Of a DNA stretch of 64,000 nucleotides, positions 1,250 to 8,923 are shown one piece after another. Positions within the stretch are counted from its first letter, which is position 1. Every line of letters starts with the position of its first letter. The notes under the pieces were generated by a model. The model ran no database searches. It had not been told where the DNA came from and saw only the letters and a program-made list of their open reading frames with translations. Source of the DNA: Treponemataceae bacterium (GTDB lineage: Bacteria; Spirochaetota; Spirochaetia; Treponematales; Rectinemataceae); contig CAXXVZ010000005.1 in NCBI GenBank assembly GCA_963678065.2, forward strand, positions 672,001-736,000, in the 5' to 3' direction. The translations under genes were made by a program, and so were the position numbers.

Positions 1250-1314
1250 CCGCTCAAGACCTTCGATATGGAAACGAACAAGCGCGACGAGCCGGTCCGC
1301 GCGCAGTCGGGCGG
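1250..1314. repeat. 65-bp direct repeat, copy 1 (copy 2 at 7334-7398)
   Basis: ccgctcaagaccttcgatatggaaacga...cagtcgggcgg; 2 mismatches between copies by manual alignment. Confidence 0.95.
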
Positions 1315-1373
1315 GCCTCCCCTGCCTCTTCGGACCTCATCCTTCGGTCCTCTCAGGCAGGTTCTGCCCGCCC
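1309..1373 (-). other. Nested GC-rich stem-loop downstream of the variable-region gene (candidate DGR cis hairpin or terminator)
   Basis: gggcgggc(1309-16)/gcccgccc(1366-73), cctgcct(1321-27)/aggcagg(1355-61), ggacc(1332-36)/ggtcc(1346-50). Confidence 0.6.
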
Positions 1374-1405: not shown

Positions 1406-3223
1406 TCAGGGACGACGGGCCAGGCGGAACCCCAGAATATTGCACCTGTAGTCCGGGTAGTAGTAGTTCCGATAGGCCGACCGGCAGCACTCAGCACTGC
1501 CGTACCAGTTGCCGCCGCGATACACGCGGTAGTCGCCAGAGGACGCGCCCATGGGGTCGGTCTGGGCGCCTGATCCATATCTTCCATACCAGTCATGGCA
1601 CCACTCATATACATTCCCGCTCATGTCGTAGAGCCCAAGCTCGTTCGGCGCCTTCGTTCCCACAGCATGCGTCGTTCTCCCCGAATTGCCATTGTACCAA
1701 GCCACCGGGCCAGAATCGTTCGACCCCGCATAGGTATATCCTTTCGACAGCTTCCCCCCGCGGGCCGCGTACTCCCACTCCGCCTCCGTAGGCAGCCGGT
1801 ACCCCTTCCTCGTGAAGTCCGCGTTTACGCTTCCGCCATATATTGTGTATACTTTCTCCAGACCTTTCTTCTCCGATAGCCAGTTGCAGTATGCCACCGC
1901 GTCGTTCCAACTCACGCATACGATCGGGCTTGTCTCCCCCTGCTCAAAGTACGGATTCTTCCATGTTGCGTCCTTTTGCTTCTCCCATCTAGATCCTGTC
2001 AACACATATGAACCATCCCCCCGCTCTGCCTCCGTCCGATAGCCAGTCGCCTCCACAAACTTCCGGAAATTCCCCACTTTCACCTCGTATTTTCCCATAT
2101 AGAACGGCGATACCGTCACCTGATGCGCTTGCTCATCCGAGCCGCCGGATACCGATCCCATCTGGAAAGTACCACCCTCCACGAACACCTCATCCGCGGC
2201 CGCGCGTTCCTCAGGCTTCGGCGTCTTCGCAAGCGCGTCCCGCTTCTTCCCGATCGCCAGATCCACCTTCTTCCTCTCCGCCGCGATCGTCTGTCTCGCC
2301 GCTTCCAGCTCCTTCTCCGCCTTCTCGATCCCGTGCTTCTCTCCCTCCACCCACTCGCGCTTCGTCCTGTCTTCTCCCGTGTCCGTATTCGCCGGCGTCC
2401 CCCAGAAGTCCGCTTCTTCCGCCTTCTTCCTCTCTTCCTCCTTCGCCGCCAATACGCTCTCTTCCTTCCTCACCTCCGCTTTCCACTCCTCGATCGCTTT
2501 CTGCTCCAAGCCCCACAGCCACTCGTGCACCGCGCTCAGGTCAAAGCTCACCTTGCGCACCTTCAGTTTCCCATCATAGTCACCGATCCTGAATCCCTTC
2601 TTTACCAGCGCCTTTGCGTCCTCTATCCTCACCCCCAACACCCCAACTCCCCCGCTTCCCCCATCTCCTGTCTTGAACAACTCCGACCACTCCGGTCTTC
2701 CGGGTACATTGAAGCTGAAGTATTCCTTCTGCTGACCAGCGTTCTTTTCCTTGAACGTTCTCCATTCAGGCGTTTCTGTCCCCCCTGATCCTGTCGAGTG
2801 CAGCAATGGTTTCGCGAACACTCCAGGATCGAGCATCAATCCTTCGCGACTCCACACTTCCCCATAGAGTTCCACGTTGTATACCCTGATCTTTTCCAAC
2901 ACCTCCACCGGGACCTCAGGGCTCCCCGTGTAGCGCTTGATCCATTTCGGCAATCGCACTACCGAGGTTCCCTTCCACTCATTCCACGCAGCGGTGCTGT
3001 CCACGACCGGTTCGCCCATCAGCGTCCACACCTTCCAGTTCACCAGAAATGTTGCACCCCTGTCGAGATTCAATCCTGTACCATCTTCCAAAGACTCTAC
3101 TCTCGCCCATGAAGTCCCTGACACCTCTTCCGCTCCGGCGATCGCCACCCTTGCCATAGTCATTGTCAGGGCCAGCAGCACCACCACCCCCCTCGTCGAT
3201 CGTTTTGACTTCATCGCTTCCAT
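1406..3223 (-). CDS. Secreted SUMF1/FGE-sulfatase (CLec-fold) domain protein with coiled-coil linker; putative DGR target
   Basis: Motifs FQMGS, MGKYEV, PIVCVSWNDAVAYCNW, RLPTEAEWEYAARGG, PNELGLYDMSGNVYEWC, RGGNW, ILGFRLAR. N-terminal signal peptide. GGAGG RBS precedes ATG 3223 (the ORF track starts at 3262). Confidence 0.9.
   Translation of the reverse strand: MEAMKSKRSTRGVVVLLALTMTMARVAIAGAEEVSGTSWARVESLEDGTGLNLDRGATFLVNWKVWTLMGEPVVDSTAAWNEWKGTSVVRLPKWIKRYTGSPEVPVEVLEKIRVYNVELYGEVWSREGLMLDPGVFAKPLLHSTGSGGTETPEWRTFKEKNAGQQKEYFSFNVPGRPEWSELFKTGDGGSGGVGVLGVRIEDAKALVKKGFRIGDYDGKLKVRKVSFDLSAVHEWLWGLEQKAIEEWKAEVRKEESVLAAKEEERKKAEEADFWGTPANTDTGEDRTKREWVEGEKHGIEKAEKELEAARQTIAAERKKVDLAIGKKRDALAKTPKPEERAAADEVFVEGGTFQMGSVSGGSDEQAHQVTVSPFYMGKYEVKVGNFRKFVEATGYRTEAERGDGSYVLTGSRWEKQKDATWKNPYFEQGETSPIVCVSWNDAVAYCNWLSEKKGLEKVYTIYGGSVNADFTRKGYRLPTEAEWEYAARGGKLSKGYTYAGSNDSGPVAWYNGNSGRTTHAVGTKAPNELGLYDMSGNVYEWCHDWYGRYGSGAQTDPMGASSGDYRVYRGGNWYGSAECCRSAYRNYYYPDYRCNILGFRLARRP
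1423..1770 (-). repeat. 3' end of the FGE gene including the variable region (1436-1540); repeated at 7394-7738
   Basis: Manual alignment of 348 vs 345 bp, with three 1-nt deletions in the second copy. Confidence 0.9.
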
Positions 3224-3312
3224 GCCGGCCTCCCCCAATCCCTTGTTGACTGTTTGTGTCACTACTCAAGCATCATTCTTATTGTTCATTTTTATTGACA
3301 ATATGCACGTTA

Positions 3313-4620
3313 GGCATCGCGCCAAAATAATTTGACTGCTTTTATTCTTTAGTCGGAAGCAAAGCATAGTTCCAATCGCCATGGAATTTTGCCTGCTTAA
3401 TGTTCAGGGCAGCAAGTTCTTCATCACTAACCTTGATCCCGAGTGGATACGAACCTGAATCCAATTCTGCGCATATTTTCAGTCCCGCTGCAGTGGTTGT
3501 ATTTGCAATCAATTGAATAATTACCTCGTGGCTAATCAACGGTCGGCCTCGCCAGTTCTGAGTGATATGGCAAAACATTCGGTGCTCGATTTTATTCCAT
3601 TTGCTGGTACCTGGTGGAAAGTGACACACGTGAATTGACATTCCAAGCTGATTCGCTAATTCGTGCAATGCAAGTTTCCAGAGCCGACATCGACTACCGT
3701 TGCTGCCACCACCATCAGCGGTAATCAGCAATTCTTTTGCAGTACGATACCGTTTCACACCCATTTTTTCCCACCAACGTCGGATGGCTTCGGCAGCAAA
3801 ATGTGCGGTATCGTGGTCGATTCCTACACTGACCCAGCCCTTGTTTTCGCTTATATCGAAGACTCCGTATGGTATGGCCTTGCCCAGCTCTGTATCAATG
3901 AAGTCATGAACCATTACAGATTCCGGTTCACCTTTGGGACGCCATTCTCGTCCTCCATTTCGAAATTCCCCAATCAATTCTTTCTTTTTCGTATCTACCG
4001 AGATAACTGGATTCCCTTTACGCTGAAACCGCTTGACCATGGTGTTGATATACTCAAACTGCGCATTTCGATCCGGATGCGACGTTCCTTCTTTGGTCTT
4101 CCGATTGCTCTGTAGACTGTAGCCTTCCGCGTTCAGTAGCCGTCCAACCGTGCGCGGGCTTACTGTGTGCCCTTGTCGTGTAAGCGTATCTGCAAGATTA
4201 CTGGTGCTCAGGCACGTCCACTGTAGTGGCGACTCTGGATCACCCCGTGTCATTGGTTCAATTAAGCTCGTAAGTTTTTCCCTTAACTCGGGATCGTTTT
4301 CACTGCATCGTTTTCTTCCACCGCCTGGGAAACGTACGCGAGTGCGTATCTTCTCGTGCGGATTACTTTCGCGTAATGCCAGCTCATTCATTCCTTTGCG
4401 TATTGTGTTCGGCGACATCTTAATCGCGGTATTGACTGCCTGTATCCCACCACGACCATACGCTCTTGCTTCAGCCGCCGCCCATTGACGTCGCATTCGT
4501 TCATCCATCATGGGCACAAGTGCGTTGTACTTGGAAGCTATTTGTTTTACCGTTGCCTGATCTTGCATACTTCATTATAATATAATCAATATATTAGTCA
4601 AGTTATTTTGACGCATTGCC
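3313..4620 (-). mobile_element. Complete ISAzo13-family insertion sequence, 1308 bp, 25-bp imperfect terminal IRs, TTA target duplication
   Basis: IR ggcatcgcgccaaaataatttgact (3313-3337) matches the reverse complement of 4596-4620 at 21/25. TTA at 3310-3312 and 4621-4623. Confidence 0.9.
3342..4568 (-). CDS. ISAzo13-family DDE transposase
   Basis: TRGDPESPLQWT, HPDRNAQF, ISVDTKKKELIG, ITADGGGSNG, HFPPGTSKWNKIEHR, NWRGRPL, FHGDWNY. Confidence 0.93.
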   Translation of the reverse strand: MQDQATVKQIASKYNALVPMMDERMRRQWAAAEARAYGRGGIQAVNTAIKMSPNTIRKGMNELALRESNPHEKIRTRVRFPGGGRKRCSENDPELREKLTSLIEPMTRGDPESPLQWTCLSTSNLADTLTRQGHTVSPRTVGRLLNAEGYSLQSNRKTKEGTSHPDRNAQFEYINTMVKRFQRKGNPVISVDTKKKELIGEFRNGGREWRPKGEPESVMVHDFIDTELGKAIPYGVFDISENKGWVSVGIDHDTAHFAAEAIRRWWEKMGVKRYRTAKELLITADGGGSNGSRCRLWKLALHELANQLGMSIHVCHFPPGTSKWNKIEHRMFCHITQNWRGRPLISHEVIIQLIANTTTAAGLKICAELDSGSYPLGIKVSDEELAALNIKQAKFHGDWNYALLPTKE

Positions 4621-4858
4621 TTAGTATGTCGATGCCCAGACAAACGACGAAACGATATATAAATATGAACCTTCCATCGGAGACGAGATCGGCTGCCAGG
4701 CAATCGCTTGTGGTACTTCGTGACGATCCGCAGGATGTGAGGTCTCGAAGGAGGCCTCACATCCTGTTCTCTGATTCATGGACGCTTCACGAGGATACTC
4801 GTCAGATGAATGGGTTCTTTCCCTCCAACCTGTCATCTATCGGGCTCCTGTTCCGGAC

Positions 4859-6538
4859 TCAGATATAGTTGGAAAGATGAATTGTGACCCAATCATCAGA
4901 GTAGTATCCAAAGTGACTGGTCATTATCTTGTCTGTTAAATCACATAGACTGACACTGCCCTTGATTTCTTTCTCAGATCCGCCGTAGTAGGCTCCATAT
5001 TTGCCCTGAGGGTTTAAAAAATCGATCAGTGTTTTCGCCGCATCCCAATCGATTTCTCCATATACCTCCAAGCATTCTCTGTTCAATGTATCATACCTCC
5101 AGATGATATCTGCCATATTTTCTACGGCAAGTTCATTGGTATAGCGGTGCATCGCGCAGATACGCATTTCAGGTATTAAAAACATATTACTAACAACTAC
5201 AAGATCATCATACTGCTCGCGTTGTGGATGGAAGTATAAACCCTCATGCACATTATCGTCCTTTATCCAGGACTTGTTGATCATATCATTGACTCCAAAC
5301 ATATTCTCATTATATATATATCCAAATATATTAAATAAATCCTTATTGCAGTTCAAATATGCAGAAGGATATTTCCAGTCATTCCATCGTTCATACAATC
5401 CCTGATTTGAAGGGACTATTTCAGGAAGTCGAGCTTTCTCAAGAATGTTTTCCACTTTACCATGGCGTGGTATACGTGCTAAATAATCATGCGGATCGAG
5501 CTCGGCATCTTTTTGACCAGACTCAACGATGACCGCAGTATTTGTCGATCCGTCTCCTACCGGATATAGCCAGGATGCACCTCGCTGTGAGTCGACAATC
5601 GCGTCAACAACAGATTGCGCATTTTTCCCGACTGACAAGGCATGCCTTACCATAAGTAATGATCCTATTCCGGGCCTCATGGGATCACACAAAACAGAGG
5701 GAACCATATCGACTCCCATTGCGACACCGCTCCTGTTCATACCCGTGATACTGCCAACGAATCCAGGAGCTGTCTGGCTCACAAGTGGAATTTGATCCCC
5801 TTGGGGATTATATATTATTATGCAAGCTAAATCCTGGAACACCTTGGCATTGCTGAATTGAAAATCTCTGCCAAAATAGAAATGCTTGTTTTTTGTCGCA
5901 TTTTTGAACGCCGCAAAGGCGTTACATCCAAGGGGTAAACGAAAATTGTTTGGACCTGTCTCTATCCGGCAATCTCTCTCGCCAGGTGGAAGCATGTCTA
6001 CATAATCTTTTCGAATTCGAGCCAACCCCGCGTTCGTGTAAACCACAGCGACAAGAAAATCAATTCCAACATTTAGTAAGAACAGATTTTCGTAGCTTAC
6101 TCTTGTGTGAGGATTAATCTCCTTGCAGCCAGCAGCCATCCCGCGCATCTCATCATGAAGCTCTTGTGGAATATCTCCCATGTTTTCATTTAAACTGTAA
6201 GTATTCCAACAACTATTTTTAACCGCCCATAAAAGCATTTTGAAAATAAAATCATTTTCTTTCCGTAAAAAATCAGGGATTATATTTTCCATGTATGTAC
6301 TCGTCATTATGCTGATTTCTTTTTCGAGTAATTCACCGATAAGAAATCCCATTTGATAGTTTGTCCCTTCCACATAGATGACTTTCTTTTCTACCTGTTC
6401 GCCATCCCTGGTTCTGTTAGTAGTGGTTTTCGCCAATATTCCCCTTCCCTGATTCCCATTGCAGAAAACAGTTTTCACACCAACAGGCGTCAACCCATCA
6501 GCTCTAAACGCATCATAAATCTCATCATTTGTTTTCAT
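4859..6538 (-). CDS. C45-family autoproteolytic Ntn-hydrolase (acyl-CoA:6-APA acyltransferase-like)
   Basis: YQMG..G, EMRGMAAG, GCNAF (Cys nucleophile), FGRDF, PGFVGSITGMNRSGV. AGGAGG RBS precedes ATG 6538. Visibly AT-rich. Confidence 0.75.
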   Translation of the reverse strand: MKTNDEIYDAFRADGLTPVGVKTVFCNGNQGRGILAKTTTNRTRDGEQVEKKVIYVEGTNYQMGFLIGELLEKEISIMTSTYMENIIPDFLRKENDFIFKMLLWAVKNSCWNTYSLNENMGDIPQELHDEMRGMAAGCKEINPHTRVSYENLFLLNVGIDFLVAVVYTNAGLARIRKDYVDMLPPGERDCRIETGPNNFRLPLGCNAFAAFKNATKNKHFYFGRDFQFSNAKVFQDLACIIIYNPQGDQIPLVSQTAPGFVGSITGMNRSGVAMGVDMVPSVLCDPMRPGIGSLLMVRHALSVGKNAQSVVDAIVDSQRGASWLYPVGDGSTNTAVIVESGQKDAELDPHDYLARIPRHGKVENILEKARLPEIVPSNQGLYERWNDWKYPSAYLNCNKDLFNIFGYIYNENMFGVNDMINKSWIKDDNVHEGLYFHPQREQYDDLVVVSNMFLIPEMRICAMHRYTNELAVENMADIIWRYDTLNRECLEVYGEIDWDAAKTLIDFLNPQGKYGAYYGGSEKEIKGSVSLCDLTDKIMTSHFGYYSDDWVTIHLSNYI

Positions 6539-7333
6539 GTGAACCTCCTGAAACAGGTAAAGCATCCCACTGACCACTCAACCGCAGACCCACATAATTC
6601 GTGACAAAAAATAAATACACTTTCCGGAACTGCAATCATGCTCACAAGTCTCACGACGGGGTACTGCGTTTCACATCGTGGAGTAAAACTAGGAAGTTTT
6701 TGAAATGCTTGAGTTCGCTTTTCAAAGCTGCGTTTTATCAGAGAAACAGTATTCCTGCAAGAAATTATCCGATGCAAAACATCAACCCGCTCATCGGAGT
6801 GAACCCATGTTTGATTATCAATCCTAATTTAACTTAAGTAAATGATTATATTTTATATTTACATATCACAGGATAGTGGTTTAGGACAAGTCTTCGCCAG
6901 AGTCTTTATCTCTGCTTCAGAGCGCGCGCACTAGACGAAATCCGATATAGCCTCGCCGGTACGATAAGATCATGTGGTGCCGATCACTGCTCCATATAAA
7001 CAGCACCATGCCGTCAGATGCCTCTCCGATACAAGATTGATGTCACGGGACGCCAAATCACTGTAGCGTCAGCCGCAATAAAACGCGCACCGCTACTTGC
7101 CCCTTCCTTATATCAGCCTGGCAAGCGCTTCCGGTCTATCCCGCACCGACGCTGGCAAATTGACTGGCTTCCAGTCTACAAGGCAAATCCCATTCACTAC
7201 GGTGCGCCCGTTACGGAGTGCGGCGGGGCAGACAAGAGCGCGGGTGAAACCTGCTCCATCCTTCACGACGGCTATCTCGTTGGCTACATGGCCACGAAGC
7301 GTCAAATCGATCGTTTTAAAGAAGTGTATCGTC

Positions 7334-7398
7334 CCGCTCAAGACCTTCGATATGGAAACGATCAAGCGAGACGAGCCGGTCCGCGCGCAGTCGGGCGG
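7334..7398. repeat. 65-bp direct repeat, copy 2
   Basis: Matches 1250-1314 and is fused directly to the FGE fragment at GGCGG (7394-7398). Confidence 0.95.
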
Positions 7399-7738
7399 AA
7401 CCCCAGATTACTGCACCTGATGACCGGGTAGTAGTTGCCCCGATAGGCCGACCGGCAGTACACGGCATTGTTGTACCAGCTGCCGCCGCGAAGCACGCGG
7501 AGGTCGCCACAGGACGCGCCCATGGGGTCGGTCTGGACCCTAATCCATAGCCTCCATACCGGTCATGGCACCACTCCCACACATTGCCGTTCATGTCATA
7601 CAACCCCAGTTCGTTCGGCGCCTTCGCCCCCCGGCATGCGTCGTTCTCCCCGAATTGCCATTGTACCAAGCCACTGGGCCAAGATCGTTCGATCCCTCAT
7701 AGGTATATTCCCTCGACAGCTTCCCCCGCGGGACGCGT
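7394..7738 (-). pseudogene. Frameshifted C-terminal fragment of a second FGE/CLec gene with its own variable region (7407-7511)
   Basis: [21 protein letters not shown]; in another frame [35 protein letters not shown]. Three single-base deletions relative to 1423-1770. Confidence 0.9.
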
Positions 7739-8923
7739 CGATCGTGTCCGTATCCCAGGAGAGGACGACGCGCAATCCCGATTCCGGATTGCGGATGAGT
7801 CGCGGATCGAACTCCGGTAGCACGGACGAGCTGGCCCAGGCCTCGCAGCTTTGTAGGGTGATCAAGGCGTTGAGCTCCTCAAGCGCGACCATCGTGACGA
7901 TAACGCCGGCTCCCGGCGCGGTTCCTCATTCATGATCACATCACGGAGAAGAGACATGGCCTCGGCGAGGTCAGCCGCGGAACGCAGCGATTTTGCCCTT
8001 CCGGCAAGGGCCAGGGCGAGATCCCGAGCCGCGGGGCAGATGGTCAGATGATGCCGAGTCTCGCTCGTGGACGATCGGGGCTGCCCGCGTAGCGCGTTCG
8101 CCCAAGAAAAAATATTGCCCCCCAGCAGTCCTCTCGACGGAAACAATTCGCTCGGGGAGGCTGGAAAGGGATATCCACAGATCATCGTCCGGATCGACAT
8201 CGTGCAACTCTACTTCGGCAATCCACCCATCGCCGGAGGGCGAAAACTCCGCCCTCCCGTGTCCTCCGACTCGGGGCGCCACATCGACACCAGCCACCTG
8301 TGCGTGGAGCGTCAGCTTCCCGATCCGTTCCCTGGCGGGAAATGTAATCGCCGCCGTGCATTGCCCGCAGCGAATGTCGCAAACTTCTCGACATAACGAA
8401 TCTTGGCCGTCCGCGTTCCCAACGCCGGAAAAGGATAAATCCTTGTCCGGTACACGTGCCAGCGACCTGTTCCACGAATCCGGGGTCGGTGACGACTGGC
8501 CGATAAACCTGGGTCTCGAAGGCGATGCGAGCCTTGTCCTTTTTTATGATGGCCCCATCGGTCAGAAGGCCGTTCACATCAAGCGCGTATCCCGTGACTG
8601 CGGCCCCATCCGGCAAAGGGATGGTGAGTTCCCCCTCCATCACCCATCTGTTGGGATTGCGCAATATCAACGTCGCCTCTGTTTCGGCGAAGACGCCGAC
8701 GATTCTCGTCCTCACGTCCATGGACGCTATGCTGATCGACTCCGTGCCCGCGTACAGCAGCCCAGCGGCGGTCGAGGAGGTTGCGAGGTTTTCCCCACCT
8801 GATAAATTCTGCGCTTGTATCCCTGCCGTCTGGATTAAGAAGAAAAAGCATTGTGATGCCGACACACGTCGCGTGTGTCGTAACCGAGCCCTTCCTGTTA
8901 CCCCTCAATAATTGATTATCCAT
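7739..8923 (-). pseudogene. Decayed VIT-domain / DUF2135-like secreted protein
   Basis: VIT motifs (AETEATLILRNPN..MEGELTIPLPDGAAVTGYALDVNG..KARIAFE..DPGFVEQVAG). After a frameshift near 8457 it continues VYRTRIYPFPA. Later fragment LRVVLSWDTD. The signal peptide is in a different frame. Confidence 0.75.

Follow-up and report, generated by a model that had tools for sequence, protein, structure and literature searches.

The subject of this text is a window of 64,000 nucleotides (nt) from a Treponemataceae bacterium of the family Rectinemataceae (assembly GCA_963678065.2, contig CAXXVZ010000005.1, positions 672,001 to 736,000; in our numbering G000:C5:672001-736000), the window being the whole stretch that was analysed, and two variable regions (VRs) in it of the kind written by diversity-generating retroelements (DGRs). 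VR1 lies at the 3' end of an intact gene for a protein with the C-type lectin (CLec) fold of the formylglycine-generating enzyme (FGE) family, and VR2 lies in the remnant of a second such gene. That VR1 is a real DGR variable region, and that it was rewritten recently, is well supported. At a probability of roughly three in four, we consider that both regions are likely to stem from one DGR of the type with an HRDC accessory gene and that they are probably orphaned targets, since the DGR reverse transcriptase (RT) and the template are absent from the assembly, which comprises 5.27 Mb in 5 contigs and is 99.94% complete and 6.72% contaminated. Six public sequencing runs hold at least half of the window, none of the runs listed for it being an RNA data set, and five of the six (X1, X3, X4, X5 and X6) were compared with it as assembled (Logan) contigs, in which rare variants and some records are dropped. 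The features on which the argument turns are the following.

1406 to 3223, minus strand: DGR target gene, intact, 605 amino acids (aa) (open reading frame; the 605-aa form in the protein collection is P0010; Pfam PF03781, E=3e-61).
1436 to 1540, minus strand: VR1, within a zone alike between the two copies (1423-1565); delimited by the comparison of the copies, run X4 and protein P0001.
1406 to 1435, minus strand: constant 3' end of the target (LGFRLARRP and the stop codon), of which 1423-1435 is common to both copies; likely the equivalent of the initiation of mutagenic homing (IMH) site, a role proposed from the account in PMC5758913.
7394 to 7738, minus strand: remnant of a second target gene, truncated at its 5' end, with three 1-nt deletions and with the stop codon and the hairpin deleted.
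7407 to 7511, minus strand: VR2, an apparently frozen variable region, found by aligning the copies; none of the seven listed differences (of eight) between X4 and this genome in 5160-7663 falls inside it.

A gapless alignment of 35 codons pairs 1436-1540 with 7407-7511 on the minus strand; 15 of these codons differ, at a total of 20 nt, distributed over codon positions 1, 2 and 3 as 6, 13 and 1. The 35 codons, the 15 that differ, the 20 nt and the 19 changes at positions 1-2 had been put forward in an earlier interpretation made from the letters of the window (the sequence-only reading); realignment reproduced all of them, and every codon pair named there was found in the alignment. The surroundings behave differently: the 141 nt of 1425-1565 are identical in both copies save for the 20 VR sites, while the 203 nt upstream (1566-1768) hold 27 differences (approximately 13% divergence), and the share of third positions is 1/20 in the VR vs 13/27 upstream (Fisher p=0.0014). 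Many of the upstream changes had also been described as ordinary synonymous ones; this needs correction, because 14 of the 27 fall at codon positions 1-2 and the upstream part is thus not mostly synonymous. At 16 of the 20 VR differences one copy has an A (binomial p=0.006 against one half); compared with 14 of 27 upstream, this share gives p=0.067, which is weak taken alone. As had been claimed, neither copy is the template, with 14 and 12 non-A mismatches in the two directions.

Independent evidence for hypervariation comes from a second strain. Over 1408-1694 the contig from X4 has 19 substitutions and a 3-nt gap relative to this genome, whereas flanking X4 contigs outside the insertion sequence (IS) show 11 differences in 5602 nt (0.20%). 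The letters are listed for 15 of the 19 substitutions; all 15 lie within 1438-1534, and 14 change a first or second codon position; 10 differ from both VR1 and VR2. Protein P0001 equals the window protein (P0010) except at 16 residues, all within 564-596, and it is consistent with every listed X4 letter and covers the four unlisted ones. VR1 is the same as in this genome in X1, X3 and X5, and over the 87 nt covered in X6. Two further observations concern the X4 strain. Its contig over approximately 1320-1437 differs from this genome at seven sites and by one insertion in 1354-1406, one of the changed bases being the last of the stop codon, although the stop is retained in P0001. The strain may also have another target gene with the same 3' end, since 1408-1458 and a piece from 1764 on recur in a second X4 contig, of depth 6.

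The variable sites were then set against the templates of related DGRs. VR1, VR2 and X4 taken together vary at 27 sites; in alignments with four related templates, 19, 21, 21 and 23 of these coincide with an A, compared with 11, 10, 15 and 16 of the other 78 sites (p from 1e-7 to 1e-9). Judged from these alignments, the placing of the variable sites on template adenines is the signature of a DGR. Three genomes of the same family (G001, G013 and G071) hold an HRDC gene, a DGR RT and a template in a row. The adjacent target differs from its template exclusively at adenines in G001 (23/23) and in G013 (16/16), and the same is true of a G013 target on another contig (21/21); other pairs of template and target match more poorly, with 15/22, 17/40, twice 19/51 and, in G071, 20/31 of the differences at A. 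The accessory protein was matched in 45 of the 401 genomes of the order, although in some of them the match is confined to the HRDC domain of a longer protein, and Avd in 4 of the 68 other genomes of the family. Separate Avd-type DGRs with their own template and VR pairs were seen at L056, L058 and L059 (in G013, G045 and G044, respectively), so the two types co-occur in G013. Thus the assignment of the window's regions as DGR variable regions at the C-terminus of a gene of the FGE/CLec fold, made at first from the two copies, now has independent support in the strain hypervariation of VR1 and in the adenine match to related templates.

The search for the rest of the element gave a different picture. 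No template was found by blastn or by an adenine-tolerant scan of both strands of the whole genome, in which the only third match to the VRs is an FGE paralogue on contig C2; nor did the genome give any match to a profile made from the sequence that follows 70 template-like repeats. The six RVT_1 matches in the genome all have QGxxxSP and YADD motifs, which we take to assign them to the group II intron type. They were rejected as the DGR enzyme: DGR RT queries and the DGR RT profile match only these six, at 23-32% identity. There is no Avd in this genome, and the contig ends give no hint of a hidden core. The absence of template and RT, at first noted for the window, therefore holds for the whole assembly; that VR1 and VR2 are non-adjacent targets is supported, and the idea that the organism diversifies them in trans at present is unsupported, since this genome has neither a template nor a DGR RT nor Avd. 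Of what a complete DGR comprises, the template, a DGR-type RT and a full accessory gene are lacking here.

Outside the assembly, no cognate template was detected in 248 loci, including 80 metagenomic and 80 viral relatives of the RT, the best candidate having 14 non-A mismatches; the 80 best viral RT relatives are 31-40% identical. Exact motif scans gave no hit in metagenome contigs or viral contigs and one hit in genome contigs (a Kribbella contig), in collections that may lack the records closest to this genome. The sequence-only reading had held that its proposal would fall if this genome or close relatives had no template repeat or DGR RT. This stands for the genome, where template, RT and Avd are missing, and for the lack of a cognate template in the 248 loci, but not for the relatives, as genomes of the same family contain intact DGRs of this type.

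In the runs, X1, X3 and X6 have 6, 7 and 3 contigs matching VR2, respectively, and besides the VR1 contig none of them is a second full-length contig at host depth. Nothing spans the region other than the copies already known from the window, some short pieces of FGE genes and a single contig of low depth. X4 shows no template at host depth among the matches listed, in which the depth over 1467-1534 comes from one contig and that of the VR2 bin is 11.3 vs 10.3. The low-depth contig, at 4.7x in X1 (record 3, 8918 nt) and 2.7x in X3 (4069 nt), carries an FGE gene and a VR-like repeat, with a template-like repeat 1717 nt further. Of the 19 differences between this template and VR2, 14 could be decoded (by hand, from summed depths), nine of them to A and five not; three of the five sit where VR1 and VR2 agree, and the match ends at 7424. 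This cassette is thus related but not cognate, given the five non-A differences. Provided that the contigs of X1 and X3 represent one and the same element, its VR also seems to be off its own template at several non-A sites.

One locus elsewhere in the genome may be what is left of a core.

G000:C2:146021-147304 (L009): gene for an FGE lipoprotein with a VR-like end and a long hairpin, then approximately 34 codons of an HRDC-type accessory gene, then an AAA-ATPase gene (found by profile search).

The accessory profile was built from 27 of 30 loci (leaving out two that were partial and one interrupted by a stop) and run over 98,117 frames of this genome. First among its matches was the HRDC domain of a long protein and second was C2:147203-147304 (profile positions 2-32, E=0.0011), the next having E=8.1. 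The fragment begins 208 nt behind the FGE gene, compared with 188 and 180 nt in intact cassettes, and is followed directly by the AAA-ATPase gene. Most simply, it is likely to be the stump of a deleted DGR core.

The second copy differs from the first in having decayed. Its homology to the target stops at 7738, and 113 nt containing the stop codon and the hairpin are missing between 5-nt direct repeats. The sequence-only reading had treated it as a second working target, which does not hold, for with its 5' truncation, frameshifts and missing stop codon and hairpin it is a pseudogene. Adenine-specific retrohoming, as described in PMC5758913, overwrites the 3' end of the target, randomises Asn-type codons and resets the remainder. 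By this route, an RNA from a template rich in AAC and AAT would have been reverse-transcribed with errors at adenines, a step established for DGRs and proposed here by analogy. The complementary DNA (cDNA) would have replaced the 3' end of each FGE/CLec target, randomising codon positions 1-2 of the binding face and resetting the other bases; this resetting would explain why the scaffold bases are identical in spite of approximately 13% divergence upstream. One template presumably served both copies. Copy 2 then decayed by truncation, frameshifts and loss of the stop codon and hairpin, and it likely ceased to be a target, perhaps upon losing the hairpin, while the rewriting of VR1 would have continued past the split of two strains approximately 0.2% apart. 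The core was then probably lost, and the stump on C2 is likely the scar of the same or an earlier cassette.

Several points weigh against this scenario. The cognate template was not found in any genome, run contig or locus searched, so the adenine specificity is read from related templates only. An assembly of 5 contigs with 6.7% contamination could hide a 2-kb core in a gap. Because neither strain shows a template, the core would have to have been lost twice or shortly after the strains diverged, unless one allele was imported by recombination. The contigs of the runs compared lack rare variants and some records. X4 and P0001 are perhaps one data set, for which reason they are counted once here, which brings the independent second alleles down to one. 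At 13 of 72 non-A scaffold sites the C2 target departs from VR1, so the scar may stem from an earlier or another cassette. Hairpin loss as the cause of the freezing of VR2 is a guess, which pseudogene decay alone would neither explain nor test. Finally, the shape of the hairpin is unlike that of phage DGRs. The Bordetella phage BPP-1 requires a hairpin at its target (PMC3240598) and, like the intact target here, has a GC-rich inverted repeat after the VR; its stem of 7-10 bp and 4-nt GRNA loop, as given in that account, contrast with the 65-nt interrupted hairpin with a 9-nt loop approximately 50 nt behind VR1, and here there is no Avd and no sign of a phage.

It is unlikely, although worth keeping in view, that the core resides outside this genome, either with a minority of the population or within a transient mobile element, and that core-less cells gain VR1 alleles in trans or by short-tract homologous recombination. 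Such a source would fit the finding that the VR1 alleles of two strains approximately 0.2% apart are entirely unlike each other while neither run shows a template at host depth, and the X4 changes in 1354-1406 (seven sites and the insertion) could be the edge of an imported tract. The same runs also contain the low-depth contig with its FGE gene, VR-like repeat and template-like repeat (4.7x in X1, 2.7x in X3), but that template is not cognate (5 of the 14 decodable differences are not to A), viral RT relatives are only 31-40% identical, the 248 loci are without a cognate template, and the exact motif scans of viral and metagenome contigs are empty.

We give rather little weight to the view that VR1 is a live remote target, still rewritten in trans by a core of HRDC gene, RT and template located in a gap of the assembly or on a replicon missing from it. 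In favour of this view, VR1 is intact, as is its hairpin, the change between strains is very recent, remote targeting occurs in the family (the G013 target on another contig, 21/21 at A), and the assembly is in five pieces. Yet an assembly that is 99.94% complete has no template, RT or intact accessory gene, and the contig sets of X1, X3 and X6 are without a template at host depth. VR1 is, moreover, identical in X1, X3, X5 and the 87 nt of X6, though these may be one lineage and contigs may hide rare variants. That the data of neither strain show a template is awkward for the main scenario, and for this reason both an outside and a gap-hidden core keep some probability, if a low one.

An origin without any retroelement, by ordinary divergence of paralogues, gene conversion or positive selection on a binding surface, is largely refuted: binding residues of FGE-fold paralogues vary anyway, the genome has no DGR core and the test of A in either copy against upstream is weak (p=0.067), but selection cannot yield 19 substitutions in 105 nt at a background of 0.2%, none at the scaffold and nearly all in codons of the form NNC/NNT, most X4 letters are new, not copied from VR2 (10 of 15 listed are unlike both copies), and the sites match template adenines in a family whose related genes are DGR targets proven by sequence. 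An orphaned pair of targets is the reading that we prefer.

The target gene combines a hypervariable 3'-end region on an invariant scaffold with an FGE-type CLec fold (PF03781). Its parts and its downstream elements are as follows.

1415 to 2197, minus strand: FGE-sulfatase (CLec-fold) domain; the closest solved structure is Treponema denticola TvpA (PDB 2Y3C, E=2.7e-38), with an alignment that runs through the VR.
2201 to 3133, minus strand: beta-rich N-terminal domain outside known families and two long helices, a predicted stalk (predicted local distance difference test score, pLDDT, of the model 71.8).
3131 to 3223, minus strand: likely cleaved signal peptide with a basic start, a hydrophobic core and no lipobox cysteine, read by eye from the sequence.
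1309 to 1373, minus strand: long interrupted hairpin with stems of 8+7+5 bp and a 9-nt loop, a candidate target-recognition element; absent behind VR2.
1250 to 1314, minus strand: 65-nt downstream element, repeated at 7334-7398 with 97% identity (family D4).

The N-terminal domain has no Pfam family, no Atlas hit and no fold match at E<=0.001. Eight relatives of this part, 27-58% identical, bear other C-terminal domains; in P0002-P0009 the domain and helices are joined to FGE, WG repeats, CarboxypepD_reg and Fib_succ_major, possibly as a modular display platform. Catalytic FGE (SUMF1/FGE) has a cysteine-bearing active-site segment. In the alignment to 2AFT, the segment of the target matching the active site is three residues shorter and coincides with the hypervariable stretch, in which the cysteines differ between alleles; on this comparison the target does not appear to be a catalytic formylglycine-generating enzyme. 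Its product is probably a secreted binder that displays one fixed variant on a helical stalk.

The hairpin at 1309-1373 folds as DNA with z=-2.7, and 2 of 200 shuffles were equally stable; Rfam gave no matches in the window or in L009. The stem base CCTGCC...GGCAGG is found in long interrupted hairpins behind VR-like ends: in the window (1309-1373), at L263 and L265 in G013 and at L064 in G071. Such hairpins occur in three genomes of this family, against a background of 12 in 5000 random windows. As a general mark of targets the motif was rejected, since only 3 of the 69 ends of FGE genes and 2 of the 90 template-like ends have it, and because of this rarity in the wider loci it stays a family-level lead.

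Two further features lie between the copies.

3312 to 4621, minus strand: ISAzo13-family IS (PF07592), with seven near-identical copies in the genome; an X4 contig joins 3309 to 4621 (empty site).
4859 to 6577, minus strand: low-GC passenger gene (GC 0.38-0.47) with a weak match to an AAT/C45-type acyltransferase (PF03417, E=3e-4, below the cut-off); it is not shown to be part of a DGR.

The IS lies approximately 90 nt upstream of the target start and could change how the target is expressed. A fragmented VIT-domain gene (PF08487), which adjoins the VR2 remnant on its upstream side, occupies 7740-8865 on the minus strand, with a 2-nt insertion at 8117 in X4. Elsewhere in the genome, which has approximately 59% GC, very A+T-rich stretches at about 99000-112000 of G000:C3 and 839000-928000 of C5 could be foreign islands or contamination (6.7%).

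The closest known counterpart is the DGR of T. denticola. Both have an FGE/CLec target with a C-terminal VR, TvpA being the best solved relative, and, by the account in PMC4891356, both share several dispersed targets, an HRDC accessory gene (found here in the cassettes of the family) and targets retained without RT or template; leftover targets are reported there from isolates lacking both. In contrast, the window target has a seemingly cleaved signal peptide instead of a lipobox, an N-terminal domain outside known families and long helices, and no cognate template is known for it from any relative. The gene order differs as well: the accessory gene sits between template and RT in the T. denticola system as described (PMC4891356), whereas the cassettes of this family run target, HRDC, RT, template. 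HRDC-containing DGRs (architecture C) and remote targets were defined by Wu et al. (PMC5758913), and the traits given there, an HRDC accessory gene, a chromosomal location and non-adjacent targets, recur in the family, intact in G001, G013 and G071. This genome, with its targets and approximately 34 accessory codons only, does not amount to a complete member of that architecture: the VR places the window target among the targets of HRDC-type DGRs, and the genome does not hold a complete DGR. Remote targets of this kind are missed by surveys anchored on the RT, according to PMC8144416.

That DGR cores are gained and lost while targets are left behind is a well documented outcome. What this case adds is detail: the rewriting is dated to within a strain divergence of approximately 0.2%, the pseudogene copy without a hairpin, 6 kb away, apparently stayed unchanged during that time, and there is a likely scar of an HRDC-type core. 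The case would gain much in importance if the cognate core turned up in only part of the population, for the sharing of DGR diversity at the population level would then become testable. Were the core indeed outside this genome, VR2 would serve as a built-in control and the CCTGCC...GGCAGG hairpin would be a targeting signal specific to the family.

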